64,000 nt of DNA from a virus. The notes below the pieces were generated by a model. The model was given only the letters and a program-made list of their open reading frames with translations, was not told the DNA's origin and did not search any database. Shown here one piece after another: positions 5,376 to 32,041 of the stretch (its first letter is position 1; each line of letters opens with the position of its first letter). The DNA lies in IMG/VR virus record IMGVR_UViG_3300031576_000009, positions 37,721-101,720 of that record; one strand, 5' to 3'. A program made the position numbers and the translations under genes.

Positions 5376-5734
5376 CAGATTCTCGGGAGGATGAAGATTT
5401 CGATGCGCGTGTCTCCATTGGGAAACGATGACTCCAGACCGGACGGATCGTTAGCGTAGAACACGGCGAGGTATTTGCCCGGATCGTCCGTGTTGGTGAC
5501 CGCCCAGGCATAGACGAGTTGACCGCTGGTTCTCGGTAAGATGAAAGCGGCCGTCACCAGGGAGAGCGTCGACACCGTCTGGTCCTCTTTCCGCATGCTG
5601 AAGCGCGGATTCGTCCAGTCGGTGAAATTGAAGGGCAGCCCCGTGCTCTCCTTGATCACGGTCGCCACCAACACCGGGAGCCGATTGCCGGCGGTCAGAA
5701 AGGCCCGAGGAGTTCGTCCGCCGCTGATGGTCAT
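5375..5734 (-). CDS. BppU N-terminal-like baseplate Ig-fold protein
   Basis: GQLVYAW...DDPGKYLAVF...SFPN pattern. Confidence 0.7.
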   Translation of the reverse strand: MTISGGRTPRAFLTAGNRLPVLVATVIKESTGLPFNFTDWTNPRFSMRKEDQTVSTLSLVTAAFILPRTSGQLVYAWAVTNTDDPGKYLAVFYANDPSGLESSFPNGDTRIEIFILPRI

Positions 5735-6819
5735 GCCGCGAGGATTTCCATCGGTTTGTCATGGTACATCACGCTCGGCACGTCGTCGTACCAGATCACG
5801 TCCCCCAACACGTCTTGCCAGCTCACGTTCACGTGGACTTGGTCGTTCGGGATCGTACCGATCAGCATGGCAATTATATCAGCCAAACCGACGTTCTCAA
5901 CCGCCTGGATGGTGAGGACCGGTACGAATATCTTCAGGTTGTTCAGCAGGTCCTGTACCGTCATCGTCTCGGCCTTGTTGATCAGCAGCGGATTCAGGAA
6001 GAGCCGGGTGATCGCATCTTGTACCGAAACATTTTCCTGTAACCGGACGACGAGCGGGTTCACCAGGAGCTTGGTCACCACATCGGTTGGCGTCACGCTC
6101 TCCTGCAGCGCGATGCGCAGGGGATCGATGAAGAGCTTCGTCACCACATCGGCGAAGCTGAGCGTGTCGCTGACCCGGATCACGAGGCCGATCGAGATGA
6201 TCAGGAAGTCGGCGACCGTGACCGACTCCGCTCGATTGATAATGAGTGGGTTGATGAGGACGCGGACGACCGCATCCTGGAACACGGGCGAATCGGAGAC
6301 CGCGATCAGGAGCGGGCTCACGAAGAGCCTCGACACCACATCCGTCAGCGTCGCGGTATCGGAGACCCGAATGCGCAGCGGCTCGACGAAGAGCTTCAGG
6401 ACCGCATCAGCGATCGCCGGAGTCTCATTCGCCCGCACGAGGAGCGGGTTGATGATCAGCTTGACGACGGCGTCCTGGATACCCTGGTTCTCGATCGCCT
6501 GGAGCAGGAGCGGGCTCTCGAAGATGCGCACCAGGACATCTGTGATCGTCGCGGTATCGTTCGAGCGAATGATGAGTGGGGTGATGACCTCCTTCACCAG
6601 CTGATCGGTGAGGGTGGGATTCTCCATGGCCTGGACGATCAACGGATTGATCACCACCTTCACCACCATGTCGCTCGTCGTGATGGTGTCGTTGGTGCTG
6701 ATCCGCAGCGGCGAAGCGAAGAGCTTCACCAGCTGGTCCACAGCCGTCGCGTTCTCCGCGGCGTTGACTATCAACGCCGTGATGAGCTGCTGCGGAACGA
6801 AGAAGAGGAACCAGCTCAT
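5731..6819 (-). CDS. 22-aa tandem-repeat structural protein (~14 repeats)
   Basis: Units such as PLRISTNDTITTSDMVVKVVIN and PLLVRANETPAIADAVLKLFVE. Confidence 0.85.
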   Translation of the reverse strand: MSWFLFFVPQQLITALIVNAAENATAVDQLVKLFASPLRISTNDTITTSDMVVKVVINPLIVQAMENPTLTDQLVKEVITPLIIRSNDTATITDVLVRIFESPLLLQAIENQGIQDAVVKLIINPLLVRANETPAIADAVLKLFVEPLRIRVSDTATLTDVVSRLFVSPLLIAVSDSPVFQDAVVRVLINPLIINRAESVTVADFLIISIGLVIRVSDTLSFADVVTKLFIDPLRIALQESVTPTDVVTKLLVNPLVVRLQENVSVQDAITRLFLNPLLINKAETMTVQDLLNNLKIFVPVLTIQAVENVGLADIIAMLIGTIPNDQVHVNVSWQDVLGDVIWYDDVPSVMYHDKPMEILAA

Positions 6820-7220
6820 TGACTACCGGTTCTCTTCTTCAGCTTCTTCGTATCGAGATCGAAGATATAGGACGCCGGCACAGTCTTCTTCTCCTTCGTC
6901 ACGCGTGCGGCGATCTGATCGAACTGTCCCTGCAGCTCCTGTAGACGACGCTGGTTCGGCGTCTGGCACTCGACAATCCTTCGCTTGAGGAGCTCCGCCT
7001 CCAGGACGATATTGGTCAACTTCAACTGATCGACCTCAGAGAGGTCAATCTCCGCCGGCCCTGGCAGGGTGGTAGTTGTCGACGATACCGGGTCTGTTGT
7101 CGTACTCGCAATATTCGTCTTGACCGTTGTCATTGTGGTGGAAACTTCCGCCGATTCGCTCGGGCGTCCGCCACCCGATCCAAGAACCAGCAGCATCACA
7201 ATCACTTGGTACTGTCTCAT
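6816..7220 (-). CDS. signal-peptide protein with Thr-rich linker and coiled coil
   Basis: MRQYQVIVMLLVLG; STTTTTLP. Confidence 0.75.
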   Translation of the reverse strand: MRQYQVIVMLLVLGSGGGRPSESAEVSTTMTTVKTNIASTTTDPVSSTTTTLPGPAEIDLSEVDQLKLTNIVLEAELLKRRIVECQTPNQRRLQELQGQFDQIAARVTKEKKTVPASYIFDLDTKKLKKRTGSQ

Positions 7221-7385
7221 TGTACCTCTTCCTTGTCTCTGTACTTGTACATCATGTTATCGAGTACGGCTTCGGTGGGGGTTAATGCTCGGCACCGCTC
7301 CCACCGTTGTTCACGCCCGTCGCCCGAGCCGCCGATGGTATTAATCCAGCAGCAGGGCGCAGAGGATGCCGCCCCAGACACGGCC

Positions 7386-7616
7386 TCACGGCATGACTCC
7401 GACCTGCAGCTCCTCGGGCAGTGTGGTCGTGGTGGTGGTCGAGGTCGGCGGTGTCACCGCAGGCGGCAAGGAACACGCCCACATCAGGCGTCGATCCGCC
7501 TGCACGTGCATGCACATCAGCACCTGCTGGGCGTGCCACGAGGTGAACATCGCGTAGGCGAGCCCCATGGTGGCGAGCAACCCGATCGCTCCGAGTCCGA
7601 CGTACATCCACTTCAC
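7386..7616 (-). CDS. small single-TM protein with Thr-rich tail
   Basis: GGGAG RBS; TM; TSTTTTTTLP. Confidence 0.7.
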   Translation of the reverse strand: MKWMYVGLGAIGLLATMGLAYAMFTSWHAQQVLMCMHVQADRRLMWACSLPPAVTPPTSTTTTTTLPEELQVGVMP

Positions 7617-7627
7617 TCTGATCTCCC

Positions 7628-9817
7628 TCAGAACGCCGTGATGATGACGATGACGCCATCGGCGCCGTTGCCGCCGTTGTTGATCGCATCACCGCTACCC
7701 CCACCACCACCTCCGCCGGGGAAGCCGCCATTGCCACCCGCACCGACGTCGCCACCGCCTCCACCAGAACCCCCGAGGGTGCTGATTCCCGTCGCGGTCG
7801 CGCTGCCGTCCTCCACACCGCCCGCCCCAGCCCCACCGCCGACCCCACCGACACCCGCAGCGCCCGAAACGGTCCCACCACCTCCTCCACCACCGCCGTA
7901 ATTCGAGGTGCCGCCCGTGCCGGCATTGTTCGCCCCGAGGTTTCCCGCACCGCCGGCTGCACCACCGAAGTCTGCGCGACCTCCCGGATTCTGCGTTGTC
8001 GAAGCGGAAGCTGTCGTGGGCGCACCACCGCCCATACTGCCGCTCCCCTGACAGGCGTTAAGTGTCTGACAGGCGGTGTTGGAAAGGGCCGTCGGGAGAC
8101 TCTGCACACTGCCGCCTGCCCCACCATCGCCCGAGTCGTTATTCGCGCCATCCACACCAGCCGACCCGAGATTCGCAGACAGGATGACGATACCGTTGTT
8201 CGTCACCGTGCTTGAAGTCGCCGCAGACTTCGTAGCACCACCGATGCCACGGACCCCGACGCTGAGAGTCAACGTGCTTTGAAGCTCGGAGGCCAGGAAC
8301 ATCGCCCGTTGGTAGGCGCCGCCGCCGCCGCCGCCGCCCCCAGCAGCGGTCCCTGTTGTGTTCCCTGCTCCACCACGACCGCCAGCACCGAGCATCACGA
8401 TGTCGACGTGCTTCGCTCCTTGCGGCTTGACCCACGTGTCGGCCCCCCCGCCACGGAACATCTGGACGTCGGGCGTACGTGGTGTCTGTGAGATCACCTG
8501 CGCAGCGGTCGCCGTCCAGGTGTTCACCTGGGCAAGCGCGATCGTGATATAGGCTTCTGCGGTGCTCGTCACGGTGCCAGTGGTCGCACCGAGATCACCC
8601 GCAGCGGTGTAGAAGCCGGTGAGGATCATAATCCCACCACCGTCCCCATCCGCCGTGCTCGCATCGAACCGCTCAGTGAGCGTCGCGAGTTGCGCGTTCG
8701 CCTGCGACGAGTATTGCGCGCCAGTGCCTCCGTCCACCGCGTGCGCCGCAACCTGCACAATCATCAAGTTGTCGTAGGGCACACGACCACCAGGGATAGT
8801 CATGCTCGTACTTGCTGTCTCTTTGACTCCCGACGAGATGAAGATGGTCGGGTCACCGGCGGCAGCGACGCCGCGGAACGACGCGATGACGACGTAGGTA
8901 TGATCGCCCGAGTCCGCAACGGTCGGGACGGACTCCGCGCCGCTTGAGCGCTTCCAGCAGAGTGTGAGACGAGTCGTTCCTGCGGCCTTCGCAATCCCGA
9001 ATCCTGTCTGCGGACCGCGCGTTGTATAGCCAGCCGGGCACGTCGCTGGATCGTTCTCCGTCTGGATCGCCAGGAGCAGCAGATCGCCAGAGATATTCGT
9101 CGGGAGCGTGAGCCCCTGAGCCGACCCGACGGTGCCCGTCCCGCTGCCCGCTGCCCCGACGCCGATAAAACTCGATGCCGTGCAGCCGGTCGCGGTCGAT
9201 CCGCACCCTGTCCGGTACGCGCTCCCGTACGTCTCGAACGCACCGTCGCTGCCGAAGCCAAAGCGCCGCGTGTACAGCGTCGCACCCGTGATGCTCGACC
9301 ACGCCGTGCAGGTGATGCCGTAGCTCGCGGTCCACGTCTCTGAGGAGTAGCACTCCCAAGCGTACCCGCCCTCGTTCGCCGCGCCTGGTTGCGGATCACG
9401 CATGACGCCGGCACCCTGCCCAGTAATGAAGAATGTCCCCATGGTCTGTCCACTCTGGACGTTCGTCGGGTTGCGCGCGTCGTCTCCGCCACCACGGCGA
9501 AGCCCCATCACGGAGTCAGGGCCAATACTCGACGAGTGTGTCTCCAGTGCAAGACTCGCAACGTTCGAACCACCGTGCTCCACGGCATAGAAGCTCGCCG
9601 TCAGTCCCCATACGGATGGCTCCAGTGAGGACGACGTGAACATGGCTCCGTAGAAGCTATGGACGGGAACAGTCCTCCCCGACGAGTCCGCACCCATATT
9701 CCGTTGGACATACCGCGGGTAGAAGCGACCAACCGGCGAGCCCGGCATGTCCTCCGACGACTGGGCTGCGCCACGTCCGGCACACAAGGCAAACACGAGT
9801 ACGAGGACCGCACGCAT
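7628..9817 (-). CDS. Gly-rich tail-fibre-like protein with N-terminal signal peptide
   Basis: MRAVLVLVFALCAGRGAA|QS; TWVKPQGAKHVDIVMLGAGGRGG...GGNGADGVIVIIT glycine-rich fibre domain; start re-called at TGATG overlap. Confidence 0.85.
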   Translation of the reverse strand: MRAVLVLVFALCAGRGAAQSSEDMPGSPVGRFYPRYVQRNMGADSSGRTVPVHSFYGAMFTSSSLEPSVWGLTASFYAVEHGGSNVASLALETHSSSIGPDSVMGLRRGGGDDARNPTNVQSGQTMGTFFITGQGAGVMRDPQPGAANEGGYAWECYSSETWTASYGITCTAWSSITGATLYTRRFGFGSDGAFETYGSAYRTGCGSTATGCTASSFIGVGAAGSGTGTVGSAQGLTLPTNISGDLLLLAIQTENDPATCPAGYTTRGPQTGFGIAKAAGTTRLTLCWKRSSGAESVPTVADSGDHTYVVIASFRGVAAAGDPTIFISSGVKETASTSMTIPGGRVPYDNLMIVQVAAHAVDGGTGAQYSSQANAQLATLTERFDASTADGDGGGIMILTGFYTAAGDLGATTGTVTSTAEAYITIALAQVNTWTATAAQVISQTPRTPDVQMFRGGGADTWVKPQGAKHVDIVMLGAGGRGGAGNTTGTAAGGGGGGGGAYQRAMFLASELQSTLTLSVGVRGIGGATKSAATSSTVTNNGIVILSANLGSAGVDGANNDSGDGGAGGSVQSLPTALSNTACQTLNACQGSGSMGGGAPTTASASTTQNPGGRADFGGAAGGAGNLGANNAGTGGTSNYGGGGGGGGTVSGAAGVGGVGGGAGAGGVEDGSATATGISTLGGSGGGGGDVGAGGNGGFPGGGGGGGSGDAINNGGNGADGVIVIITAF

Positions 9818-10272
9818 CAGAAGGTCCCGCAAATCGCCACGACGTTGATGACCTCGCTCGTCAGTGCATTGGTGAACGTTGCTTGCAGCTCGTCACCGTT
9901 CTCAAGATAGAAGTATGGGTTACCCTGGCCGTCGATGGGCAGACCGGGCCACGCACTGCCGCTCATGAAATTCACCGCGGGAATAGCGGTAGTGAACCCG
10001 GAGCTGGCGGGCACACTGATCGTTACGCCACCCACCTTCGTCGCACCCTTCTGAATCTGGACCGTCACCGGGTTGGCGGCGTTGTCGTTCGATGTGACGT
10101 AGAGGCCGACGCACTTTACCGTGTTCGTCACGGTGCCCACGACATCGACGTAGGTGCCGGGGCTGGTAGTCATCTGCACTGCGTAGAGCTTTGGCGTGCC
10201 CAGGTAGATCGGCGCAGTGGCCGCATGCGCCAGGGTGGACAGGAACAATAGGACCAAGACGAGACGCTTCAT
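9817..10272 (-). CDS. fibre-associated beta-sandwich protein with signal peptide
   Basis: MKRLVLVLLFLSTLAHA|ATAPIY...; C-terminal LENGDELQA...INVVAICGTF. Confidence 0.8.
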   Translation of the reverse strand: MKRLVLVLLFLSTLAHAATAPIYLGTPKLYAVQMTTSPGTYVDVVGTVTNTVKCVGLYVTSNDNAANPVTVQIQKGATKVGGVTISVPASSGFTTAIPAVNFMSGSAWPGLPIDGQGNPYFYLENGDELQATFTNALTSEVINVVAICGTF

Positions 10273-10275
10273 AAA

Positions 10276-11385
10276 TCAGACTCCTCCGAGAAGGGCATGT
10301 TGCAGAACCTGGACTTCGACGGACGACACGAGTGTCCCCGCGCCGCTGGTGGGCATGGCGAGTAGGCTACCATTGTTGCAGACTTCCATGGTGTCGGTAG
10401 ACCGATCGGCATACTGCGCCCAGGACTCCCCCAACGAACAGCCGGCGCTCGGAGTCGAGAGCGTGAAGTCGAGGAACCCGGCACTCGCCTCGTGCGCACC
10501 AGCCGTCTTGTCGCCGATGTTGAGCGACTCGATGGACGCCGTGCGCGTCTCCAAGTAGTCGGTCGGGTCGCCGGGATCACCGATGCGCGCACCCTTGCTA
10601 GTGCTCGACACCTTGAGGTGACCCGTGGAGACCACGAGGTTGTCCGTGATGTTCGTGTTGCCCGACCCATCAATTACGATGCGGTTCTCCGGCACCGTCT
10701 CGCCGTTCTGCACCGTACCGATCGTCAAGCCGGTTCCACGATCGCTGCCGGTCCATCCGCTGCCCGCCGTGACCGACCACTCGATGTAGCCGCCGCTCGC
10801 GCCCACAGTGCCATCGTGGCCCACCGCCTGGATCGTCATGATGTTGGTATTGAGGGCAATCGCGCTCTCGCTGCCGTGTGTACCACCAGTCCGGTAGCCC
10901 TGAAGGATGGCCGAGTTGCCCGTGCCGGTGCTGTGACTGTGGATCGTGATGGAGCCCTGGCCTGCACCGGGCAGCTCGACGTTGAGTACGCCCGTGTTGG
11001 CGGTGCAGCCGGCCTGACCGATCCCCAGGCAGTTGCCCGACGCATCCCACAGCAGCGCGCTGTCAGCCGCGATAGAGCCAGTGCCAGCCCAGTACGTTAC
11101 CTGCCCAGCCACCCCGGTGAGCGAAATCCACGTATCGGGGCCCGTGCGGGTCGGGATGCCATTGCCGAGCCCGGCGATCGCGACGAGGTCCGCGTCGAGG
11201 GCAACCACGCACCGTCCGCCGGACTTCGTCGCACCGATTGCTGGGGCGTCAAAATCGAGGACGCAGCCCGAGCTCACCAACGCGTTGTCCTGGCGCACCT
11301 CGGCGTCGTGCACTTCCCCAGCCATGTGCGCGTGTGCAAGCGACGCTATGAGTACCAGTACTCCGACTACACTCCACAGGCCCAT
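10276..11385 (-). CDS. tail-fibre-like protein with signal peptide
   Basis: LIASLAHA| signal; DADLVAIAGL, LLWDASGNCLGIG, RIVIDGSGN fibre motifs. Confidence 0.8.
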   Translation of the reverse strand: MGLWSVVGVLVLIASLAHAHMAGEVHDAEVRQDNALVSSGCVLDFDAPAIGATKSGGRCVVALDADLVAIAGLGNGIPTRTGPDTWISLTGVAGQVTYWAGTGSIAADSALLWDASGNCLGIGQAGCTANTGVLNVELPGAGQGSITIHSHSTGTGNSAILQGYRTGGTHGSESAIALNTNIMTIQAVGHDGTVGASGGYIEWSVTAGSGWTGSDRGTGLTIGTVQNGETVPENRIVIDGSGNTNITDNLVVSTGHLKVSSTSKGARIGDPGDPTDYLETRTASIESLNIGDKTAGAHEASAGFLDFTLSTPSAGCSLGESWAQYADRSTDTMEVCNNGSLLAMPTSGAGTLVSSVEVQVLQHALLGGV

Positions 11386-12092
11386 AGCGATACGTTCCCA
11401 GATGAGATCGCCGTGAGCCGAATCTTCGCTCCCAGCGAGGCGCGGGTCTGAGTGGAGATAAGACGACCGTGGTAATAGTTCGTCTCCTCAGTTCCCACGC
11501 CTTGCGCACCCACGTTATCGGGGGTGCGCGATACATCCATGAACCGGATCGCTTTGCGGAAGGCCGGGCTTGCCGCAAGGGTACGTGCATAGTCGTACAG
11601 TGCGACGACGAAGTCGCAGGTAGCACCGCTCGCCGAATACTCGGTCTTCACCAAGAGCTCGGAGAGCCGGAAGAGCTCGACCAACAGGAGATATCCATCG
11701 CCAGTCGACGGCGTGTTCGGGAGCGCGCGGTTGAGGGTCATGGTCCGGCTCGCACCGTGCGTGATGATCCGCCGTGTCTCGCCGATGTTGCCGGCGGTTC
11801 CGCTGATCATGTGGAGCAGCAGACCCTCGGCATTCGCCGGAAGGCCCGCCGTCACGTTGTCGAGCTGGACGATGGTCGCCGACGTGACCGTATCGAGCAG
11901 CCCGTCCCCATCATACGGATAGTCTCGATCGATCGTAGTCACCTGTGAGGCAATCTTGATGAAGTTCGCCGGAGCACCGAAGGGCGCGACGTGTGCCGAC
12001 TTGAAGGTCTGCGGGTTGCCCTCGATGTAGTCATCGCTGGAGATGATCCCGACGGTCTCGGCGCTTGCGGTGGACGCTGTTCCCTTGGCCAT
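11367..12092 (-). CDS. virion-associated protein, paralog A3
   Basis: DDYIEG...GETRRII...ISSGNVSLWACG shared with 14995-15702 and 15702-16430. Confidence 0.8.
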   Translation of the reverse strand: MAKGTASTASAETVGIISSDDYIEGNPQTFKSAHVAPFGAPANFIKIASQVTTIDRDYPYDGDGLLDTVTSATIVQLDNVTAGLPANAEGLLLHMISGTAGNIGETRRIITHGASRTMTLNRALPNTPSTGDGYLLLVELFRLSELLVKTEYSASGATCDFVVALYDYARTLAASPAFRKAIRFMDVSRTPDNVGAQGVGTEETNYYHGRLISTQTRASLGAKIRLTAISSGNVSLWACGV

Positions 12093-12099
12093 CGATCCC

Positions 12100-13089
12100 T
12101 CAGTGCAACGTGCTCAGGTACGGCGGCCGGTCTATGGTCTGCTCGTACCAGATGTAATCGATGTCCCAGGCACGCTCGCTCGCGTCCTGTGAACGCACCA
12201 TCAGGCCCCAGTGCCAGGGTTGCCCATCGTCCTCGACGTTGGATGACTTGAGGCAGCACCCTGTGTTACAGCCCACGCTGGCGGGGCAGGCCGCGTTGTC
12301 GATCTGACACTTGACGACGCCGACGCTCACGAGCTCGACGCGGAAGCGATACGAGGTCCCAATCACGGGGAGGATGTTCAAATCCGAACCGCTGCACGCG
12401 TTGTCGCCACAGGTGTAGCACTGGAACTTCCCGCTATTCTCGGCCCCATCATGCCGAATCCAGATCGCGCCGTTCGGGCAGCTATCCGGGTTGCTGCCAC
12501 CAGTACAGATGTCGATGCCCCAGTTCATCCGATTGTTGGTGAACGGTGATCCGAGCGCAGCAGGATTCTCGGGCTTGACCACGGACTCCAAGAACCACCC
12601 CACCGTGTTACTGAGTCCGTAGAGTGGCATCCCTCCATCACTGTGTTCCAGCTGCGCGGTCGTGTTCGCACTACTCACGCGATGAAAGGACGTGTTGAAC
12701 GAGGTCGCGACCCGCTGCCCTGAACCCGTGACAGCACTCCCACTGACGACCATGGCGTACGGAGCCCCCTGGACGCCATGGTCGTACGCCTGCAGCAGAT
12801 CGTCGAAGGCGATCACCCGTGCAGAGGGATTGAGCGAGCTCCCGCCCGCAATAGTCGCCATCCGCATCTTGCAGGAGCTCGCACCACCGAGCGCAGAGGT
12901 TTGCCCTTTGAAGTTGAGGATGCGCACCAACCCGCGAGAAGTCGAGCCTGCGAGGCATTCGATCCGCGGGCGCTGACCTAGTTGCGGCTGCGCGGAAGCG
13001 AAGGACGCGACGATGATGATGCCGATCATCGTCAAGCCGAACAGCACGATCCCAATCTTCACTACGTCTTTCAGAAAGGTTCGATTCAT
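12100..13089 (-). CDS. secreted Cys-rich lectin(ConA)-like protein, paralog B3
   Basis: Signal ...SFASA|Q; FQCYTCGDNACSG; CQID; DIDYIWY. Confidence 0.75.
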   Translation of the reverse strand: MNRTFLKDVVKIGIVLFGLTMIGIIIVASFASAQPQLGQRPRIECLAGSTSRGLVRILNFKGQTSALGGASSCKMRMATIAGGSSLNPSARVIAFDDLLQAYDHGVQGAPYAMVVSGSAVTGSGQRVATSFNTSFHRVSSANTTAQLEHSDGGMPLYGLSNTVGWFLESVVKPENPAALGSPFTNNRMNWGIDICTGGSNPDSCPNGAIWIRHDGAENSGKFQCYTCGDNACSGSDLNILPVIGTSYRFRVELVSVGVVKCQIDNAACPASVGCNTGCCLKSSNVEDDGQPWHWGLMVRSQDASERAWDIDYIWYEQTIDRPPYLSTLH

Positions 13090-14021
13090 CGGCTCACGTT
13101 CGCGCTATACCAGGCGTAGTCGACGCTGAGGCCGCGGATGCTGGCCGAGAGCGGCTGCACGGCAAGGTACGAGTTGAAGACCACCGAACTCGCCGGAAGG
13201 TTCGTCGTATGCGTCACGACCTCCCCGTCGATGTTGCATCGCAAGGTGGACGTGTTCTGCATGTCGATACGCACCTTCATGTACGTACCAGTACTCGGAA
13301 CGTAGCTTGACGCCGTTCCTGAGCACGTGCTGCTCGCGCAGGCGTAACACCGGACCGTAGAGCCAAGCGACGTATCGAAGAGCACACCGATGAAGTCCGC
13401 TGGCGCCAAGGTGTTGTACGGCGTATCGGCGGTGTCCGGCATGTTGCCGTACATCCCGGCCATGATGCGCACCGTCGTCGTGTTCTGGCGTGGCGCGAAC
13501 ATCCACTCCATGAACCAGTTGCCTGCTTGCCCGGTCAGACCGAAGAACGGATTCGGCACGACACGCGTGTTCTGATCGCGCAGTCCGAGTGTGTGAATGA
13601 TTTTGGCTGCGTTGAGCGTCGCGGGAGTATCCATGAACACGAGGCCGGGATGGTTGTAGTTCGACCCGTCGATACCAGTACAACCCGAACCCGCTCCACC
13701 CGCTCCTGTACAGGACCACCCACCATCCGTGTCGTAGTCCCGATCACCGATTCCTTGCGTAATGAACTCTTCGTACAGGTCGACCTTCGTGATCGGATCG
13801 AACGTGAATGTACAGTTGCAGGTTCCGCCGACCGTGCATCCAGCCGCTGCCAGCCCGAGGTTGAAGTCCATGCGGTTGCAGTCGGCGACCTTCGCGCCGG
13901 CTGAACGCACATCGATCCCCCGCGGGGCACCTGGCGTACGTGGTGCCGGCGGGCCGATGAACGGTGGATCGGCGAAGGCAGTGCTGACGAAGAGCAGAAC
14001 GGCAAGCAGTGATCGAATCAT
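13086..14021 (-). CDS. secreted Cys-rich lectin(ConA)-like protein, paralog B2
   Basis: MIRSLLAVLLFVSTAFA|D; CYACASSTCSG; TNLP; VDYAWYSANVSR. Confidence 0.8.
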   Translation of the reverse strand: MIRSLLAVLLFVSTAFADPPFIGPPAPRTPGAPRGIDVRSAGAKVADCNRMDFNLGLAAAGCTVGGTCNCTFTFDPITKVDLYEEFITQGIGDRDYDTDGGWSCTGAGGAGSGCTGIDGSNYNHPGLVFMDTPATLNAAKIIHTLGLRDQNTRVVPNPFFGLTGQAGNWFMEWMFAPRQNTTTVRIMAGMYGNMPDTADTPYNTLAPADFIGVLFDTSLGSTVRCYACASSTCSGTASSYVPSTGTYMKVRIDMQNTSTLRCNIDGEVVTHTTNLPASSVVFNSYLAVQPLSASIRGLSVDYAWYSANVSR

Positions 14022-14998
14022 CGGCTCACCGTGGCGTGGTACCAGACGTAATCGATGTGCAGCGGCTTCTCTGCCGTCGTCTTCGTCCAGGCACCGAGGC
14101 CCATGGTCAAGGCGATGTTGGACGGCAGGTTCGTGCTCTTTGTCACGGCGGTCGTCGCGTCGATCTGGCCACGCAGGTTGCTGCTATCGCTCATATCGAG
14201 CGTGAACTTGTACCAGGTGTTTGCCGCTACCGTGACGGCGGTGATGTCCGTTCCGCTACATGTGCTCGCCGAGCAACTGTACAGCTGAATGCGCGAGCTC
14301 GCGGATGCTTCGTACCGAAACCCGATGAAGTCGACGGGCGTGAAGAGCGTGGAGATGCAGTTCCGGCTCCCACACACAGCGAGCGTGGCCTCGCTCGTGA
14401 ACCCCATCAGGTAGATGGAGTTCGTCAGATCGCCGAGCTGTACGGCGAAGGTGAGTTTCCAGCCGGTCGTGTTCGCGAGCGCGTAGAAGGCACGCGGATT
14501 ATGGGTATGACTGCCGACGTTGCCCTGGATGTGCAGGAGCATGCAGCCCTTGTTGGTCTCATTGCAGGGCGTGATGACCTGGACACCAGGACGATCGAAC
14601 TCAGTCGCGTTAATCCCACGACTGTTGGTCCGTGAGCAACAGACGGTCCCGCCACCGGTCGCGGTCGCAACTCCTGTGAAGGCGTACTCTGTACCGCTAC
14701 GCTCTTCAGAAGCAACGCTGCCCCAGAAGTCCTCGAAGTAGTCGATCGTGGTGGACGGCGCGAGTCCTCCACTGCACGAGCAGGTACCGTCGATGTCGCA
14801 GGCATCACCGTTCCGTGTTGCGGTGAGGTTCGAACCGAACGCGAGCGAGGCACATGGCCGCTGAAAGACCCCGTTCGAGGACACGCGCGGGAAACTCCCG
14901 ACGCCTGGAGGCAACGGGTCATCACCGAAGGCGTTGATCACCTGGCAGATGAGCAGGAACGGGACGAGGAAGACGAGCAATCGATCCTGCCACTTCAT
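14018..14998 (-). CDS. secreted Cys-rich lectin(ConA)-like protein, paralog B1
   Basis: MKWQDRLLVFLVPFLLICQVINAFG|D; YSCSASTCSG; TNLP; IDYVWYHATVSR. Confidence 0.8.
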   Translation of the reverse strand: MKWQDRLLVFLVPFLLICQVINAFGDDPLPPGVGSFPRVSSNGVFQRPCASLAFGSNLTATRNGDACDIDGTCSCSGGLAPSTTIDYFEDFWGSVASEERSGTEYAFTGVATATGGGTVCCSRTNSRGINATEFDRPGVQVITPCNETNKGCMLLHIQGNVGSHTHNPRAFYALANTTGWKLTFAVQLGDLTNSIYLMGFTSEATLAVCGSRNCISTLFTPVDFIGFRYEASASSRIQLYSCSASTCSGTDITAVTVAANTWYKFTLDMSDSSNLRGQIDATTAVTKSTNLPSNIALTMGLGAWTKTTAEKPLHIDYVWYHATVSR

Positions 14999-15702
14999 GT
15001 GCCACCCGCCCACAGGCTCGTGGTGCCGGCAGAGATCGCCTTCAGGTAGACCTTCCCGCCAACCGCCCCACGCGAGGCGAGCGAGTAGCCCTGCACGTGC
15101 GAGAACGCCGCCTTGGTTACACCGACCGAGTATCCGAGGTTCATCAGGCGCACCGGGGCATCCTGGATACGGCGCGGGCCACGCGTCCCGACGATCGGTA
15201 CATCGAAGAGGGTCATGACGATGTCCAGGTAGTCGGTCTCGTTCACGTTCGAGTGCTCGGCCTTCAGCATCATCTGGTTCAGCTTGAAGAGGTCGAGCAG
15301 CAGGACGTAGTTGACCGTTCCCGTCGGCGTCGTCGTCCAGTTGCGATTGAGGGTCATCACCTGACCAGAGTGCGAGACGATTCGGCGGACCTGTCCGATC
15401 CCGGTCGAGGCTGCGGTGATCGCGACCAAGAGCCCATCGATGTCGATGTTAGTGAGCGGCACCGAGGTCGTGGTGATCGTCCCAGCGGCAACACCCGCCG
15501 CGACACCGGTCCCGTCATCCGGGTATTCCTTCACGGTGTTCACCGCATCGGCGATGCACTGCAGGGAAAGAGGGCTGCCGTACTGCCCAATGAGCTCGTG
15601 CTGAACGCTGGTCGTTCCCTCGATCTCGTCGTCGTACTGGAGAGTGCCCCACAGCTGGGACCCACCAGGATCGACGCGGCTGACGGTTGATCGCGACGGC
15701 AT
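14995..15702 (-). CDS. virion-associated protein, paralog A2
   Basis: Start re-called at MPSRSTV; DDEIEG, GQVRRI, NETDY, LWAGG. Confidence 0.8.
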   Translation of the reverse strand: MPSRSTVSRVDPGGSQLWGTLQYDDEIEGTTSVQHELIGQYGSPLSLQCIADAVNTVKEYPDDGTGVAAGVAAGTITTTSVPLTNIDIDGLLVAITAASTGIGQVRRIVSHSGQVMTLNRNWTTTPTGTVNYVLLLDLFKLNQMMLKAEHSNVNETDYLDIVMTLFDVPIVGTRGPRRIQDAPVRLMNLGYSVGVTKAAFSHVQGYSLASRGAVGGKVYLKAISAGTTSLWAGGT

Positions 15703-16430
15703 CAGAAGCCTCCGGCCCAGAGCACCACAGAACCTCCCGAGATCGTGTGCGCGTAGACCTTGGCCCCGAAGCACCCATGCGTCAGGAGCTCGTAGCGATC
15801 CCCGTGCGAGTAGGACGCCTTGGTCACGCCGACCTGGTTGGCACGGTTGGTGAGCCGAATACGCCGGTCGACGAACGGTCTCGATCCTCGCACGGTCTCC
15901 TGCGGCGTGTCATACAGATACACGTGGATGTCGACGTAGTCCGTCTCGTTGTTGGTAGAGAACTCCGCCTTGATACCGAGATGCGCGTACTTGAACAAAT
16001 CGATGAGGAGCGCGCAGATGCTCCCATCATCTGGGCGAGGGTTGTAGACGGGCGTGACCAGCAACGTGTGGAATGGAATGGCGCCGATCGTGGCCTTGAG
16101 CCCGGTGACCCGACGCACCTGTCCAAGTCCCGGCCCGACCTGTACCACGAGAAGCATGTCTGCGTAGTCGACGAGCACGTTTGAGCCCATCGTCGGGATG
16201 TAGACCTGCGCAGACGTGGCTGCTTCCACTCCTCCGGTCCCGTTGTCGGGGTATAGCGTCCCAGCAACGACCGGGTCACCGATGCACTGGAGGCGCATCG
16301 GCTGGCCCACCTGTCCGTAGATTTCGTGGTGGACGTTACTGGTACCTTCGATCTCATCGTCGAACTTGTAGGTCCCCCACTTCTGTGGGCCGGTCCCGGC
16401 GTCCTTCCGTGTGGCGGTCGCACGGCTCAT
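15702..16430 (-). CDS. virion-associated protein, paralog A1
   Basis: DDEIEG, GQVRRV, NETDY, LWAGG. Confidence 0.8.
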   Translation of the reverse strand: MSRATATRKDAGTGPQKWGTYKFDDEIEGTSNVHHEIYGQVGQPMRLQCIGDPVVAGTLYPDNGTGGVEAATSAQVYIPTMGSNVLVDYADMLLVVQVGPGLGQVRRVTGLKATIGAIPFHTLLVTPVYNPRPDDGSICALLIDLFKYAHLGIKAEFSTNNETDYVDIHVYLYDTPQETVRGSRPFVDRRIRLTNRANQVGVTKASYSHGDRYELLTHGCFGAKVYAHTISGGSVVLWAGGF

Positions 16431-17727: not shown

Positions 17728-18319
17728 GTACCACATCCTCCAGGTTCGGCGCAGCAGCCTGATCGATCCAGGCCCGCCAATCCCAGTAGTACAGAATCTC
17801 TTCGATACGTGTCGCGACCCGCACGTGCGGGCGCATGCGCGTGGACCACTCTGCATCCTCACCGGCGTTCAGCGCCTTGAAGGGCTCTCGTAGGGCGAGC
17901 TCCCGGCGCCAGACGCTCGTGTGTTGCGGTACTTCTCCCGTCTTGGTGTTGAAGTCGTAGCGTGTGATCGCTGGCTCCTGGTACTTCCCCCGTCCGTCCG
18001 GCAACCACTCCTGGCTCTGCATAGTGATGCCGCACACGTCGACCGCCATCGTCGAGACCTTGTTGCGGATCAGCTCCACGTAGTTCGGCGCGACATGATC
18101 ATCATCGTCGATGAAGGAGATGTAGTATCCCTTCGCAAGCTGGACCAGAGCGTTCCGCTTCGAGCCGATCGAGCGCTTCTGGTTGTCGAAAAGCATCAGG
18201 ACCTCGACCTCGGGATACGCACTCGCCTGCTGACAAAGGTCGCGCATCAGCTTCGGCATGTACAGCTCCAACCGATTCGGGATGCTGCACACCAGGATCG
18301 ACCAAAGGATGTTCATCAT
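17720..18319 (-). CDS. glycosyltransferase family 2
   Basis: WSILV, IGSKRNALV, GYYISFIDDDD, GED. Confidence 0.9.
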   Translation of the reverse strand: MMNILWSILVCSIPNRLELYMPKLMRDLCQQASAYPEVEVLMLFDNQKRSIGSKRNALVQLAKGYYISFIDDDDHVAPNYVELIRNKVSTMAVDVCGITMQSQEWLPDGRGKYQEPAITRYDFNTKTGEVPQHTSVWRRELALREPFKALNAGEDAEWSTRMRPHVRVATRIEEILYYWDWRAWIDQAAAPNLEDVVHG

Positions 18320-19518
18320 GGAGTCAGCGGCTTCGTGAGGTACTGCGCGCCCGTGTAGGCGTAACAGTCGGCGATCTTTTCGGTACACCCACGGCAGGGC
18401 AGCCGTCCTTTGAAGTTCGACCAGAAGTTCGCGACGAAGTGCCAAAACTGGTGCTCACCATTCCGGCGCACACTACAGCCCCAGAGTCCGAGCTTCTGCG
18501 CTTCGTCCCAACGCTCGTGCGCGATGTGCTGACGCGTCGAGATCGGACACTTCTGCGCGACTGGGACCTTCTTGTGCCACTTCCCACTGAACGGATCGAT
18601 GTGTCGACAGTGCCGCTCTCGTTCACACTGCTCGGGCGTCATCCCCACCTTGCACGCGAAGTCTTCGTACATCATGTGTCGCGCGTGTACTGCTGGGCGC
18701 AACAATCCGGCGTAGAAGATCGGCGCAGGAGCTGGCCCCTGCCCACAGTTGGCGAGATGTTGCTGGTGATGCACCTGGTCGGTCGCTTCGAGGAGGGCAA
18801 GATCGTTCGCGTCGAGCTTCGAGGGACACTTGATCCGTGCGTCGATCTTCCCCACCTGATTGGCGCCCGGTCCTGTACTCGCATAAACCTTCGGCCGCTT
18901 CGGTGAGATCACGAAGGCGGCGGGCCACTCACAGCGCTTGATTCCATCCGTTCCGGTCACGACCCGATGATCGAGGAAGTCCCGCTGATCGTCAGTGAGC
19001 GGGTAGGCCGCACAGGCTCGCTTTGCTGCATCGTTCATTGTGGACGTGTTGCTCATGATCGTGTGCGCGGTACGGATACGAAAGTAGAGCGTCGCCGCCG
19101 CCTGGAGGGTGACCACCCAATCGTCGAGACAGGCTGGCGCTGCACTTAGTTCGCACCCACACCCACAGGGGTCCTTGTACGGCTTGCAACAGTCGAAGCG
19201 GGTCTCGACCTCGGTGACGAAGCCGTCGAACTTGCTGACAGGGAATGAGCTCGCACACGCAGGGATCGACTGGCAGTACTCCATGAGCTCGAAGACGTAG
19301 ACCATCTCCATCTGGACCACGAGGTCCATCTCGGTCTGCGACATCTGCCGATCCTGGATGAACTTCAGGATGGTGTCGTCCGACACGAACCGGTGCGCCA
19401 TGTCCCGTCCGTTGGGACGACAGGCACCCTTTGGATTGCAGTAGGAGTTGTACTGTGCGTTCGCAGTACCGATGCTCATCATGCAGATCAGTACTGCCAC
19501 GATCGCCCTCATTGTCAT
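18316..19518 (-). CDS. secreted Cys-rich protein (~400 aa)
   Basis: Signal MTMRAIVAVLICMMSIGTANA|Q; more than 20 Cys. Confidence 0.75.
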   Translation of the reverse strand: MTMRAIVAVLICMMSIGTANAQYNSYCNPKGACRPNGRDMAHRFVSDDTILKFIQDRQMSQTEMDLVVQMEMVYVFELMEYCQSIPACASSFPVSKFDGFVTEVETRFDCCKPYKDPCGCGCELSAAPACLDDWVVTLQAAATLYFRIRTAHTIMSNTSTMNDAAKRACAAYPLTDDQRDFLDHRVVTGTDGIKRCEWPAAFVISPKRPKVYASTGPGANQVGKIDARIKCPSKLDANDLALLEATDQVHHQQHLANCGQGPAPAPIFYAGLLRPAVHARHMMYEDFACKVGMTPEQCERERHCRHIDPFSGKWHKKVPVAQKCPISTRQHIAHERWDEAQKLGLWGCSVRRNGEHQFWHFVANFWSNFKGRLPCRGCTEKIADCYAYTGAQYLTKPLTP

Positions 19519-19685
19519 TCCTCTCCTGCCACCGGGAGCTTGTGGAAGTACTTGTTCCAGTACTCCTGTTGCGCGACGCGTGTCTGCAGGCTGATCCCCC
19601 AAGAGATCAGCCCTGTGAGAAAGCCGAGGATCGCGAGGATCGGCGTCACGTACGACAACCACTTGGGCATTCCATCTTTGGCCAT
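19515..19685 (-). CDS. small single-TM protein
   Basis: MAKDGMPKW...ILAILGFLTGLISWGI; coupled overlaps. Confidence 0.65.
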   Translation of the reverse strand: MAKDGMPKWLSYVTPILAILGFLTGLISWGISLQTRVAQQEYWNKYFHKLPVAGEE

Positions 19686-19954
19686 CAGAACCTCTGTACA
19701 GTTCCGCAGTTCGGGCAGTACATCCCGCCCGGGGTGACGAAGAATAGATCGCAGCCACAATGGCAGGTCCAGTGCTCTGCCTTTTCGATCTCGCAATAGT
19801 TCACGTAGCGACCTCGCAGCAGCAAGCAGCTTGGACATGCCAGCCAGACTGTACCGACTGGCGAGACGGCCGCCCACTGGTGCTGGCAGGACAGACAGCG
19901 CGCTGTACCAGAGAGGTGTGGACGCTGCGCATCGAGATAGACAACCTTCCCCAT
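19685..19954 (-). CDS. multi-CxxC zinc-ribbon protein
   Basis: CLSC, CPSC, CHCGC, CPNC. Confidence 0.75.
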   Translation of the reverse strand: MGKVVYLDAQRPHLSGTARCLSCQHQWAAVSPVGTVWLACPSCLLLRGRYVNYCEIEKAEHWTCHCGCDLFFVTPGGMYCPNCGTVQRF

Positions 19955-20136
19955 CAGGAGTCGAGGACTTGATTGGGGGCTGGGCGGCATTCGTGAATGT
20001 CCATCCAACCGATCACCTCGGGGGGCGCCTGCTTGGTCTTCGCGACCTCTGCGAAGTACTGCGACAGTTTCAGGAAGCCGTCGACCTCGTCCTCGGCGAA
20101 GAAGTGGAAGTCACCACAAAAGTGTACGCGGATCAT
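19954..20136 (-). CDS. hypothetical protein
   Basis: Coupled overlaps both sides; start re-called at MIRVHF. Confidence 0.6.
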   Translation of the reverse strand: MIRVHFCGDFHFFAEDEVDGFLKLSQYFAEVAKTKQAPPEVIGWMDIHECRPAPNQVLDS

Positions 20137-21425
20137 CGTCCCAGCCTCAGCACTTCGATGTCGTCGGACCAGTCGCACATCACTCCCCAGGGATCGATCA
20201 CGACCGAGCCCTTCGGATAGGCAGACTCCAGGAAGAGACGATGCGGCATGGCGAGGACGTAGATCGCCGGCTTGTAGTAGCACTTGTCGTTGAACAAGTA
20301 GTACTTGTTGTGCCCCTCCACGTACGGATCGAAGAGCTCAGCATGGATGCCACGCTCACGGAGTAGCTCGTTCAGCAACAGGCTAGAACTGCCCACGGTG
20401 AGCCCGATGTCGGGCTTGTAGGCAAGCCCCAAGATCACCACCGGGAGCTCGGTGCGATCCACCGTCTGGGCCACGATGTTCGCGAGCCAATCAGTCTGCC
20501 GCTCCCGCGCCTTCATGATCGCATCGAAGAGGTCGAAGGAGAGATGATGCGTCCGCGCGAGGTAGCTCATCGCGATGTTGTCGCGCGGGTGGCAGCCCCC
20601 GCCGTCCCCCATGCCCGCCTTCAGATAGCGATCGCTGATCACCCGCGCAGTGGCCTGGCCGAGCACGTACGTGACCCGGTCGACGTTACCCCCGATCTTG
20701 TGAGTGATCTCCCGCAAGGTGTTCGCGAACACGATCTTCATGCCGATGAACGTGTTGTATGCGACCTTGGTGAGCTCCGCTTCCTCGATGCCCATCGTGA
20801 ACGTTGGAACACGATCAACCCCGTAAATCTTCGCGTAGAAGTCGTAATAGAAACGGCAGATTGGTTGCGGTGTGAGGTTTGGATCGTCGGTCCCGATCAG
20901 CACGAACTCGGGAAACAGGAAGTCCGGGATCGTCGTCCCCATCGCGATGAAGAACGGGTTGTAGACAGTCTCGATCCCACGATCCTGAAGGATGGGCAGA
21001 ATCTCGCGCCGTATGGTGCCCGGGAGCACCGTCGAGATAACCGCCACCATGGGCGAGACGGTATGCTTCCGTGCCGCCTCGGCGATCTGCAGCGCGGCCA
21101 CCTTCAGGAACGTGTAGTCGAAGTCTTCTCGATCGTGCGGCAGCCGCGAGATGCCCTCGAACTTCTCCTTGTGCGGCGTTTGTACCGCCACGAAGACGAG
21201 ATCACTCTGAGCAACGACATCAGCCACGGCAGGGACGACGTGGATGGTATCCCCATGCTCCAGGTACTCGTTCATCAGCGCTTCCTGGAAGGGGATGTGC
21301 TTGGCTCGCAAGTACTCCTGGACGGCCGTGTTGGTATCCGTCCCGATGACGGCGTAGCCCTCGTGCGCGATCGCCAGCGCACACGGGAGGCCCAGCTTCC
21401 CCAACCCAATGAATCCGATGTTCAC
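20133..21425 (-). CDS. UDP-glucose/GDP-mannose dehydrogenase family protein
   Basis: GLGKLG Rossmann motif, FVAVQTP, STVLPG, AELTKVAYN, GGGCHPRD catalytic Cys, LGLAYKP. Confidence 0.95.
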   Translation of the reverse strand: MNIGFIGLGKLGLPCALAIAHEGYAVIGTDTNTAVQEYLRAKHIPFQEALMNEYLEHGDTIHVVPAVADVVAQSDLVFVAVQTPHKEKFEGISRLPHDREDFDYTFLKVAALQIAEAARKHTVSPMVAVISTVLPGTIRREILPILQDRGIETVYNPFFIAMGTTIPDFLFPEFVLIGTDDPNLTPQPICRFYYDFYAKIYGVDRVPTFTMGIEEAELTKVAYNTFIGMKIVFANTLREITHKIGGNVDRVTYVLGQATARVISDRYLKAGMGDGGGCHPRDNIAMSYLARTHHLSFDLFDAIMKARERQTDWLANIVAQTVDRTELPVVILGLAYKPDIGLTVGSSSLLLNELLRERGIHAELFDPYVEGHNKYYLFNDKCYYKPAIYVLAMPHRLFLESAYPKGSVVIDPWGVMCDWSDDIEVLRLGR

Positions 21426-21622
21426 GGTGCCTCCCGTGCGACGGACTCGGTCACGACCATCCGAAAGCGGGACCAGTCGTTATGCCTGAGCTTCTGTACC
21501 TCCGCATCGATCGTCGCCGCGAGCATGTTGAGATCGTGCTGCCCGAGCTTGATCTCCTTCGCACCCTGGAGGATGCCGCGACTCCGTAGGAATACCTGCA
21601 AGATGCTCTGCCCGATCTTCAT
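21422..21622 (-). CDS. hypothetical protein
   Basis: Coupled overlaps. Confidence 0.65.
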   Translation of the reverse strand: MKIGQSILQVFLRSRGILQGAKEIKLGQHDLNMLAATIDAEVQKLRHNDWSRFRMVVTESVAREAP

Positions 21623-22242
21623 ATGGCCTCCTGTACGGAACGCCAGTCTGCTTGCATCTTAGCGAGCGTCCCGACGCGATCGCGCGTGTAGTGGTGATGG
21701 ATGATGTGCGCCGCGCTCTTCGGAATCTCGTTGCGCACCTGCGGAGACCAGTTCATGGCGTTCTCCAACACCGGTTGAAAGCGCTGGCGGTAGAAGGTCT
21801 CGTTCAAGATGCGCTGAGTGGCACCCCAGTCGTCGCCATCATCGACGCGGGCGAGCTCACTCAGCATGTAATGCATCACGTCTGCTTCGGTACTCCGCCC
21901 CACGTAGACCACACCCCCATTCAGAAGCGGCTCAGGATCGGTGTACCAGAACAACTGCATCCCGAGACGGCTGAACATGGGCGTCGGCTTCACGCAGATC
22001 ACATCAGGCGAAACGATCAGGACGTTGTGCCCGTGCTTCCAGAGCTCAGCGACCCGACGGAACTGATGCTCGATGGCCCGGTGCCAGGAGCGCGGTGGGG
22101 CATCACGCAGGGTCCCGACCAGCAGGAACTCCCAGTCCCCGAGGAGGAAGCGTCGGAAGCTGTCCATGCAGACCAGGCGCATCTGGTCGAGGCGCTCCTT
22201 CGGGTCGTCGAAGGTGAACCGTTCGAGCATGACGAAGTTCAT
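21619..22242 (-). CDS. putative nucleotide-diphospho-sugar transferase (GT-A; degenerate DxD)
   Basis: NVLIVSPDV, LNGGVVY, Q-ILN, N, IIHHH pattern. Confidence 0.7.
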   Translation of the reverse strand: MNFVMLERFTFDDPKERLDQMRLVCMDSFRRFLLGDWEFLLVGTLRDAPPRSWHRAIEHQFRRVAELWKHGHNVLIVSPDVICVKPTPMFSRLGMQLFWYTDPEPLLNGGVVYVGRSTEADVMHYMLSELARVDDGDDWGATQRILNETFYRQRFQPVLENAMNWSPQVRNEIPKSAAHIIHHHYTRDRVGTLAKMQADWRSVQEAI

Positions 22243-22427
22243 GACTTCACCAGCTCGGCATCCACATTAACGAAGGCATAGAAATCGACATGCGATCCGT
22301 CGCTCAGCTGTAGGCGGTGGAGATGTCGCTTCGGGACAATGGCTTCGACCACAATGCCGATAGCCTGACCAACCCGCATCTTGTCTTCTGGATTGGTGAT
22401 GGTCTTATAGAGCTTCTCCAGCGTCAT
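22239..22427 (-). CDS. hypothetical protein
   Basis: ATGA coupling. Confidence 0.6.
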   Translation of the reverse strand: MTLEKLYKTITNPEDKMRVGQAIGIVVEAIVPKRHLHRLQLSDGSHVDFYAFVNVDAELVKS

Positions 22428-31310: not shown

Positions 31311-31311
31311 C

Positions 31312-31587
31312 TCATCCCTTAGGCAGGAACGGATCAGAAGACCTCGGGTAGGTGCGCTCGCTCTGGATCACACCGTTCTTCTTGTGGATCACGAGCGAGG
31401 AGGGCTCGGTGTCCTTCGCCAGCGTGATCGCCAGGCGCATGGCGTCCCGCTTGTCGCGAGCGTTCGTGGAGTAGCCCTTCACTCGCCAGACCTTCCACTT
31501 CTTCTCGTAGACCAGGTGGAACTGCTTACGCCGCTGACCGGTGCGCCTTCTTGCGCTTCGTCCGCCGCGGCGGCTCTTCTTGGCCAT
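31312..31587 (-). CDS. DUF2188-like protein
   Basis: HLV...WRVK...LVIHKKNGVIQSERTY...DP. Confidence 0.8.
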   Translation of the reverse strand: MAKKSRRGGRSARRRTGQRRKQFHLVYEKKWKVWRVKGYSTNARDKRDAMRLAITLAKDTEPSSLVIHKKNGVIQSERTYPRSSDPFLPKG

Positions 31588-32038: not shown

Positions 32039-32041
32039 TGA

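Follow-up and report, generated by a model that had tools for sequence, protein, structure and literature searches.

Fiber-tip-like proteins with predicted Sec-type export signals encoded as a gene block in an uncultured tailed phage

The 64,000-nucleotide stretch considered here (the window) corresponds to bases 37,721-101,720 of the linear, 101,720 bp IMG/VR virus record IMGVR_UViG_3300031576_000009; its GC content is about 61% and its minus strand holds nearly all of its genes. On this strand lies a block of genes whose products combine bodies resembling the receptor-binding tips of phage tail fibers with predicted Sec-type signal peptides. The first-pass annotation had singled out seven open reading frames (ORFs) in this region, designated here by their lower window coordinate (6816, 7628, 9817, 10276, 12100, 13086 and 14018), as beginning with a short n-region and an h-region. 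All seven are indeed present at these positions, arranged head to tail on the minus strand and displaying such N-termini, with two of the starts shifted and an eighth ORF (7386-7616) added to the set. Together with three paralogs of a signal-less family, termed family A, the locus comprises the following features:

15702..16430, minus strand: family A paralog 1, 242 amino acids; no N-terminal h-region; supported by paralog alignment and metagenomic homologs; heads the first block.
14995..15702, minus strand: family A paralog 2, 235 amino acids, from the ATG at 15702; no signal; the database form P0163 begins at the same ATG.
14018..14998, minus strand: L1; predicted signal MKWQDR-LLVFLVPFLLICQVI-NAFG, Cys-stapled N-module and ConA-like SO2946-like_C domain; 12 mature Cys.
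13086..14021, minus strand: L2; predicted signal MIR-SLLAVLLFV-STAFA and the architecture of L1; 10 mature Cys; ATGA coupling.
12100..13089, minus strand: L3; 19-residue h-region ending ASA and the architecture of L1 and L2; 12 mature Cys.
11367..12092, minus strand: family A paralog 3, 241 amino acids; no signal; heads the second block.
10276..11385, minus strand: fiber-like protein, 369 amino acids; h-region followed by LAHA, Cys-stapled N-module as in L1-L3, beta-helix repeats; 6 Cys.
9817..10272, minus strand: small jelly-roll protein, 151 amino acids; textbook signal MKR-LVLVLLFLST-LAHA; 2 Cys.
7628..9817, minus strand: Gly-rich protein, 729 amino acids; predicted signal MR-AVLVLVFALCAG-RGAA, unknown N-terminal half, glycine-rich C-terminal domain; 8 mature Cys.
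7386..7616, minus strand: 76-residue protein; single N-terminal hydrophobic helix and Thr/Pro-rich tail; the eighth ORF, absent from the first-pass list.
6816..7220, minus strand: 134-residue protein; short N-terminal h-region, Thr-rich linker and coiled-coil-like C-terminal half; 1 Cys.

The translation starts of these genes can be placed from their immediate context. An ATGA overlap with the upstream stop codon sets the starts of the 14018, 13086 and 12100 genes, and a TGATG overlap sets that of the 7628 gene; the coupled ATGs thus move two starts, that of the 14018 gene to 14998 (product beginning MKWQDR) and that of the 7628 gene to 9817 (product beginning MRAVLV). The 9817 gene has GGAGGAG 8 nucleotides upstream of its ATG, the 7386 gene has GAGGGAG upstream of its GTG start, and a Shine-Dalgarno-like AGGAAGAGG precedes the 6816 gene. 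Each block of signal-bearing proteins is headed by a family A paralog that is translationally coupled to it. This organization is best explained as a late-region tailed-phage cassette whose genes are transcribed together; a scan for promoters and terminators across 4-20 kb of the window gave a yield no higher than in shuffled sequences.

The N-termini were evaluated with a fixed rule that demands an uncharged 10-residue stretch of mean hydropathy at least 2.2 inside the first 25 residues, an n-region net charge of at least 0 and small residues at positions -3 and -1. This rule is passed by eight of the nine genes of at least 60 codons inside 6816-15013, versus 3 of the 96 other minus-strand genes (hypergeometric P 5e-9), and among null sequences it was passed by 1.1% of 522 off-frame ORFs and by 2.4% of shuffled cluster proteins. 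The best 10-residue hydropathy within the first 25 residues ranges from 2.25 to 3.29 across all eight cluster N-termini, and the n-region carries a net charge of +1 to +2 in seven of them, that of the 10276 protein being net 0. The AxA-type cleavage motifs listed in the first-pass annotation are all present, namely LAHA in the 9817 and 10276 proteins, TAFA in the 13086 protein, ASA in the 12100 protein and GAA in the 7628 protein; the 14018 protein has NAFG/AFG, and ORF 6816 shows no clear cleavage site. At about 19 residues the h-region of the 12100 protein has the length of a transmembrane segment, and its N-terminus could be either a cleaved signal or a signal anchor. L1, L2 and L3 (the 14018, 13086 and 12100 products), which are paralogs sharing 21-31% identity, all retain the N-terminal h-region despite this divergence. 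In none of the annotated frames does the h-region end in a lipobox of the form [LVI][ASTVI][GAS]C (the FALC of the 7628 protein has Leu at -1), and interpretations as lipoproteins or as PEP-CTERM proteins were both rejected on sequence. The view that these N-termini behave as Sec-type signals is supported by where they lie, by their composition, by the evidence on start codons and by their conservation among paralogs that have diverged; at least the five clearest of the proteins are very probably exported.

Two of the three proteins outside the cluster that pass the rule are themselves plausible exported proteins, a reprolysin-type metalloprotease with 14 Cys and a 697-residue protein with 28 Cys. 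The former, encoded at window 25237-26622 (minus strand), belongs to the reprolysin/M12B zinc metalloproteases (PF13688, E 6e-22), has a textbook signal ending in VALA before QP, and is predicted to be a phage-encoded secreted protease; at identities of up to 46%, relatives were detected in 30 of the 301 Acidobacteriota genomes that were sampled, a count that includes one unpublished genome (G156). The latter lies left of the window (L003:11319-13412, minus strand, equivalent to record positions 30319-32412), has a signal-like N-terminus with no family match, and is flanked by Arg-rich proteins and a CHAP-domain endolysin candidate (L003:10574-11020). At the opposite terminus, the last residues of the 9817 and 7628 proteins of the cluster form a hydrophobic strand that closes with Phe (..CGTF and ..VIVIITAF); this resembles the C-terminal signal of outer-membrane proteins, though it may be no more than the fold's final strand.

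To characterize the bodies of these proteins, a profile of L1-L3 was run against 1.84 billion representative sequences, which recovered 271 relatives at E <=0.001, nearly all of them matching over their C-terminal 200-250 residues. The domain PF22237 (SO2946-like_C) was detected in 41 of the 116 relatives scanned, 13 among the 37 with a signal and 28 among the 79 without, and other relatives carry collagen repeats, Laminin_G_3 or a beta-helix. L2 itself reaches 17.4 bits against PF22237, under the 27-bit gathering cut-off, and L1 and L3 give no match to it. Only the C-terminal half of an AlphaFold2 (AF2) model of L2 is confident (pLDDT 70-90); the top Foldseek match of this model is SO2946 (2a5z; probability 1.0, E 4e-7), followed by galectins, legume lectins and GH16/PL7 enzymes. 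The matches of L2 in the viral library BFVD include SO2946-like proteins of uncultured phages, Mtd_N-containing, "phage tail repeat like" and tail-spike-like proteins, and minor tail proteins of actinophages. The catalytic ExDxxE motif of GH16 is absent from L1-L3. Judged by the profile matches and the modeled fold of L2, L1-L3 are lectin-like fiber-tip domains of the ConA-like class.

The architecture around this domain departs from that of its relatives. The tip starts about 65-75 residues into L1-L3, with about 45-55 residues between signal and tip, which would leave no room for a shaft or an anchor, and no known virion-anchor family was found in these proteins. At the N-terminus of L1-L3, and also of the 369-residue fiber-like protein, stands a module about 30 residues long that contains a conserved pair of Cys. 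In the signal-less relative P0011 the place of the signal is taken by an N-terminal extension, hydrophilic and about 70 residues long. While the SO2946-like tips (PF22237; 2a5z) of phage fibers and minor tail proteins share the ConA-like fold with L1-L3, in most of these relatives the domain follows a long signal-less N-terminal part, whereas in L1-L3 it follows a signal and one short module.

One of the signal-bearing L relatives is cellular: its gene, in a Bryobacterales metagenome-assembled genome, neighbors genes for a polysaccharide flippase and a GT4 glycosyltransferase, and the 12.9 kb there include no phage gene; the locus is not a prophage. The L domain is rare in the phylum of this bacterium, being found in 1 of 301 sampled genomes, and there weakly. 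The possibility, raised in the first-pass annotation, that the homologs are ordinary cellular secreted proteins thus applies in part, to this one relative in a polysaccharide locus; the BFVD matches are of phage fiber type. The gene in question (L004:426-2861, plus strand) is followed from about L004:2860 by an ORF that opens with a signal-like MRALVLLLLGPALW; located near the flippase, GT4 and Mur-ligase-like genes, the two may constitute a cellular exopolysaccharide-associated pair.

The cysteine content of the cluster proteins offers a further line of evidence. The mature forms of the six large proteins all have even Cys counts (L1 12, L2 10, L3 12, the 369-residue protein 6, the 151-residue protein 2 and the 729-residue protein 8), and these residues mostly occur in close sequence pairs, as had been noticed at the outset. 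Among the signal-less genes of the genome, even counts are found in 35 and odd counts in 32. Of the 147 L-domain relatives listed, 37 (about a quarter) pass the signal rule; the mature Cys count is even in 31 of these 37 versus 55 of the 110 signal-less ones, and Cys per length is likewise higher in the signal-bearing relatives than in the remaining ones. This contrast is expected if the signal-bearing forms are exported and oxidized and the others are cytoplasmic, and it suggests that a single domain family has switched between cytoplasmic and exported forms many times. The parity fits oxidative folding of the cluster proteins, and along with the enrichment under the signal rule, the start-site evidence and the conservation among paralogs it lends support to the earlier proposal of Sec-type export and oxidative folding. 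It could also serve as a cheap marker for identifying further cases.

Beyond the L proteins, the body motifs reported in the first-pass annotation were recovered in the 7628 protein (TWVKP and Gly runs) and in the 10276 protein (DADLVAIAGL and RIVIDGSGN). In phmmer searches the latter, the 369-residue protein, aligns over 94 residues (153-246) with PDB 8OML (Bd1334) at E 0.0026, the alignment placing RIVIDGSGN opposite KVVIDQNGN. Its Atlas look-alikes, which combine language-model and structural similarity and serve as leads only, belong to viral clusters in which Mtd_N, PTL_trimer, S74 or Stf repeats occur. The 151-residue protein resembles small viral jelly rolls in Atlas structural matches to viral clusters. 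Its look-alikes are 131, 140 and 153 residues long, and their alignments begin at query residue 20-23, which implies that the two shorter look-alikes, at least, are too short to accommodate a signal; this is a lead in favor of the suggestion that a signal was appended to the 9817 protein. The 729-residue protein matches PF21722 (Gly_rich_2) at E 0.0018, below the cut-off. The attribution of fiber- or lectin-like bodies holds for the six large proteins and fails for ORF 6816, which like ORF 7386 encodes, as judged from its sequence, a small membrane or periplasmic protein, with a coiled-coil-like part in the case of 6816. The idea that these two might be spanins was dropped: no convincing small lipoprotein ORF exists in 6400-7700, and the CHAP endolysin candidate is far away.

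The three family A proteins (15702, 14995 and 11367) are signal-less and have 2-3 Cys each. Eight metagenomic relatives were found. The central motif of family A, SGTG-G..RRI...P..GDGY, recurs in 412-414-residue proteins of two siphovirus-like IMG/VR contigs (L015:9479-10717 and L019:9404-10648), where these occupy the major-tail-protein position, and it is this position that suggests a link of family A to the tail. No recognized tail family was found for family A, PHROGs giving nothing on 11 members; against PDB there was a single weak match (E 0.067), and the predicted model was poor (pLDDT 40.7) and was not used for a fold search. The closest signal-bearing relative of the L proteins (P0005) and a relative of family A (P0168) each have a longest contig of 54,804 bp, and given these equal lengths they probably come from one related phage with the same cassette. 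Other searches for relatives were negative. No match emerged when three cluster proteins were compared by tblastn with 50,697 phage records, and IMG/VR yielded no relatives in pattern scans based on family A, L2, P0005, P0168, the 9817 protein or the capsid protein. Metagenome scans with P0005 and with P0168 found nothing, and word-indexed homolog searches, whether started from the L profile or from the 9817 protein, recovered proteins of this same genome and no others.

The head genes of the record sit left of the window, about 17 kb from the cluster, which is upstream of them with unrelated genes in between. They encode a major capsid protein of the SU10-type HK97 fold (PF17236 at 2.5e-65, phrog_1328, with matches to solved capsids including that of SU10, 7z45), a portal (phrog_145, 7e-59) and a scaffold protein. 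A 793-residue TerL is recognized by tblastn through residues 540-790, its C-terminal part, which match annotated large terminases; no member of the terminase families PF03237, PF17289 and PF04466 was detected in the genome, and phmmer of the TerL candidate against PDB gave no match. The conjunction of an SU10-type HK97 capsid, portal, scaffold and TerL identifies a tailed phage; the known cultured phages with this capsid family are short-tailed. The window also contains a replication module, comprising a split family A polymerase, a UDG-exonuclease, a DnaB-like helicase, a primase, RecA and an SbcC-like ATPase, along with sugar-nucleotide and methyltransferase genes. CheckV places the completeness of the record at about 79%. 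The stretch is present in a single public sequencing run, a cave metagenome that is probably the source sample of this uncultured phage; no RNA run was listed in the search of public runs. The host is probably a soil or cave diderm. Acidobacteriota would be a guess based on the relatives of one L homolog and the reprolysin matches in 30 of 301 genomes, with Acidobacteriota genomes alone as the search set.

In the textbook picture tailed-phage assembly is wholly cytoplasmic and fibers have no export signals. In branched multi-tailspike systems such as those of CBA120 and G7C, adjacent genes encode several receptor binders, some of them anchorless, which dock through short N-terminal modules on an adaptor. 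The side-by-side arrangement recalls the present cluster, but those tailspikes lack signal peptides, and their assembly is cytoplasmic. Exported phage proteins that act on the infected cell are exemplified by Llp of T5 and Cor, single small lipoproteins that mask the phage's own receptor; in contrast, the cluster proteins lack a lipobox and have bodies derived from receptor-binding domains. Phages of Porphyromonas gingivalis have a few genes of unknown function with Sec signals, which were read as host-secretion-adapted and envelope-modifying (Matrishin et al. 2023, PMC10367356); these share the type of signal with the cluster, but no fiber-like bodies or clustered paralogs were described for them. 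Signal peptides were also reported on 5% of the prophage carbohydrate-active enzymes in one survey (PMC13507307).

The nearest parallel comes from a predatory bacterium. The mosaic adhesive trimer (MAT) fibers of Bdellovibrio bacteriovorus resemble phage tail fibers, have a signal peptide and act outside the cytoplasm (Caulton et al. 2024, PMC10769870). Their tips are diversified, including TNF-like and beta-sandwich folds with disulfides, and bind sugar in one case; they are encoded by chromosomal genes, are 600 to over 1,100 residues long, have a beta-rich domain, conserved and about 130 residues long, directly after the signal, and in many cases end in an S74 chaperone (PMC10769870). They join a signal to fiber-like bodies, as the cluster proteins with their predicted signals would, and the 94-residue match of the 369-residue protein is to the beta-helix of one of them, Bd1334 (E 0.0026). 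However, MAT fibers are chromosomal and long, whereas the cluster proteins are phage-encoded and mostly short and tip-only, and no S74 domain was found in the latter, unlike in many MATs. No description of Sec signals on fiber-tip proteins of tailed phages was found in the full-text literature searched.

From the signals, start sites, clustering, cysteine parity and fold relationships we infer the following course for export, cleavage, disulfide formation, glycan binding and site of action. The six large proteins (L1, L2, L3 and those of 369, 151 and 729 residues) would be made with Sec-type signal peptides and translocated unfolded over the inner membrane of a diderm host; signal peptidase I would cut most of them, and they would then fold in the periplasm while forming disulfide bonds. 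Their bodies would be receptor-binding modules as at phage tail-fiber tips, with the signal replacing the usual virion-anchoring N-terminus. The envelope of the infected cell is their most likely site, where they would bind surface glycans or exopolysaccharide of the host from the periplasmic or the outer side, either masking receptors against superinfection and the loss of progeny on debris or acting as adhesins; they would not be built into the tail in the cytoplasm. Action at the envelope is favored because the proteins consist of tips alone, their signal occupying the place that an N-terminal extension takes in signal-less relatives, because the cellular relative sits in a polysaccharide locus, and because the nearest solved relative of the 369-residue protein is a surface-displayed adhesin. 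To this statement as a whole (Sec export, periplasmic disulfide folding and action at the infected-cell envelope) we give a probability of roughly 0.45.

Several observations weigh against it. The signal calls come from a crude fixed rule and not from a trained predictor; the n-region of the 10276 protein has no Lys or Arg, and an in-frame ATG lies right behind its predicted cleavage site, which makes its signal the least certain, and a downstream in-frame ATG exists in the 7628 gene too. Neither a lipobox nor an outer-membrane targeting signal that would bring the proteins to the surface or keep them there was found, and for glycan binding it is the fold alone that speaks. Three diversified L paralogs, a shared N-module and signal-less block heads are more in keeping with a branched receptor-binding apparatus than with exclusion proteins, the known examples of which are single small lipoproteins or membrane proteins. 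Lastly, the genome, 79% complete, showed no further clear receptor-binding protein, and the cluster proteins may thus be the only ones of the phage.

In an alternative reading the six are true receptor-binding proteins of the virion that fold and form disulfides in the periplasm and dock at lysis, once holin and endolysin have opened the compartments, through the Cys-stapled N-module onto family A adaptors already mounted on cytoplasmic tails, which would yield a branched apparatus for several receptors. Their tip domains are homologous to virion fiber tips; three diverged paralogs plus three other binders recall phages with multiple receptor-binding proteins; the Cys-pair module of about 30 residues shared by L1-L3 and the 369-residue protein would provide a docking element, and the coupled, signal-less family A paralog at the head of each block an adaptor, one whose central motif recurs elsewhere at the major-tail-protein position. 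The probable origin of P0005 and P0168 from the same related phage and the want of another clear receptor-binding protein point the same way. On the other hand, post-lysis addition of exported parts is not known for any tailed phage, dilution at lysis would make docking inefficient, family A has a poor model and belongs to no recognized tail family, ordinary fibers may lie on the missing part of the genome, and the cluster is about 17 kb from the head genes with unrelated genes between. We regard virion incorporation as the main rival, less likely than action at the envelope, and its more elaborate form, a two-compartment host-recognition apparatus with adaptors mounted in the cytoplasm and Sec-exported, disulfide-bonded heads snapping on at lysis, as somewhat more doubtful.

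The proteins might also not be exported, in which case their N-termini would be membrane tethers that stay uncleaved, helices for the assembly of cytoplasmic proteins, or artifacts of wrongly called starts. While the transmembrane-length h-region of the 12100 protein and the in-frame ATGs behind the h-regions of the 10276 and 7628 proteins would agree with this, the coupled starts and Shine-Dalgarno sites put the h-regions within the genes, an AxA-type site stands behind five of the six, the h-region persists in paralogs only 21-31% identical, and the even Cys counts extend from the cluster to 31 of 37 signal-bearing relatives, all of which makes this interpretation improbable. Still less probable is that the ConA-like proteins are secreted GH16-/PL7-like depolymerases that loosen capsule or exopolysaccharide for the escape of progeny. 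Foldseek does return GH16 glucanases, kappa-carrageenase and PL7 alginate lyases, the L profile has weak sequence matches to GH16 (E 0.03-0.07), processing enzymes are common in polysaccharide loci such as that of the cellular relative, and one signal-bearing relative has a Phage_depo_C domain; but the ExDxxE motif is found in none of the three paralogs, the family alignment has few conserved acidic positions, the best fold matches are non-enzymatic lectins and SO2946, and the fiber-like, jelly-roll and Gly-rich members would be left unexplained. A membrane-containing particle, which the first-pass annotation had entertained, would hold the proteins in a viral lipid layer through their N-termini, and many of the clustered proteins do have N-terminal hydrophobic helices, as in PRD1-/PM2-like viruses. 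That annotation had also proposed inspecting the rest of the genome for an HK97 capsid; the SU10-type HK97 capsid found there left of the window, with portal, scaffold and TerL, and the cleavage sites behind most of the helices make such a particle scarcely credible.

Under any reading that retains export, fiber-tip modules have been fused to Sec signals, diversified and kept as a block in one phage. Either these are exported copies of receptor-binding domains that serve as tools of the infected cell in masking, adhesion or matrix binding, or they are a part of the virion that matures outside the cytoplasm, and both alternatives are undescribed for tailed phages in the literature searched. Exported phage accessory proteins and exported fiber-like adhesins were known already, and the cassette would be a variation on these. 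In practical terms, the proteins are candidate disulfide-stabilized glycan binders for unculturable, probably soil or cave, diderm hosts.

The genes around the cluster have some features of their own. Directly downstream of it, window 5731-6819 (minus strand) encodes a 362-residue protein with about 14 copies of a 22-residue repeat (..D..VK....PL.I.), no Cys and no family match; a similar repeat pattern opens a 1357-residue protein at L002:643-4716. Just upstream of the cluster, window 18316-19758 (minus strand) encodes a 480-residue protein with 24 Cys, no signal and no family match. A capacity for glycan modification is indicated by a UDP-glucose/GDP-mannose dehydrogenase and a methyltransferase at window 20133-23326 (minus strand), and within the structural region L002:15407-18820 (minus strand) encodes a 1137-residue GT4-methyltransferase-GT2 fusion that contains an intein fragment.

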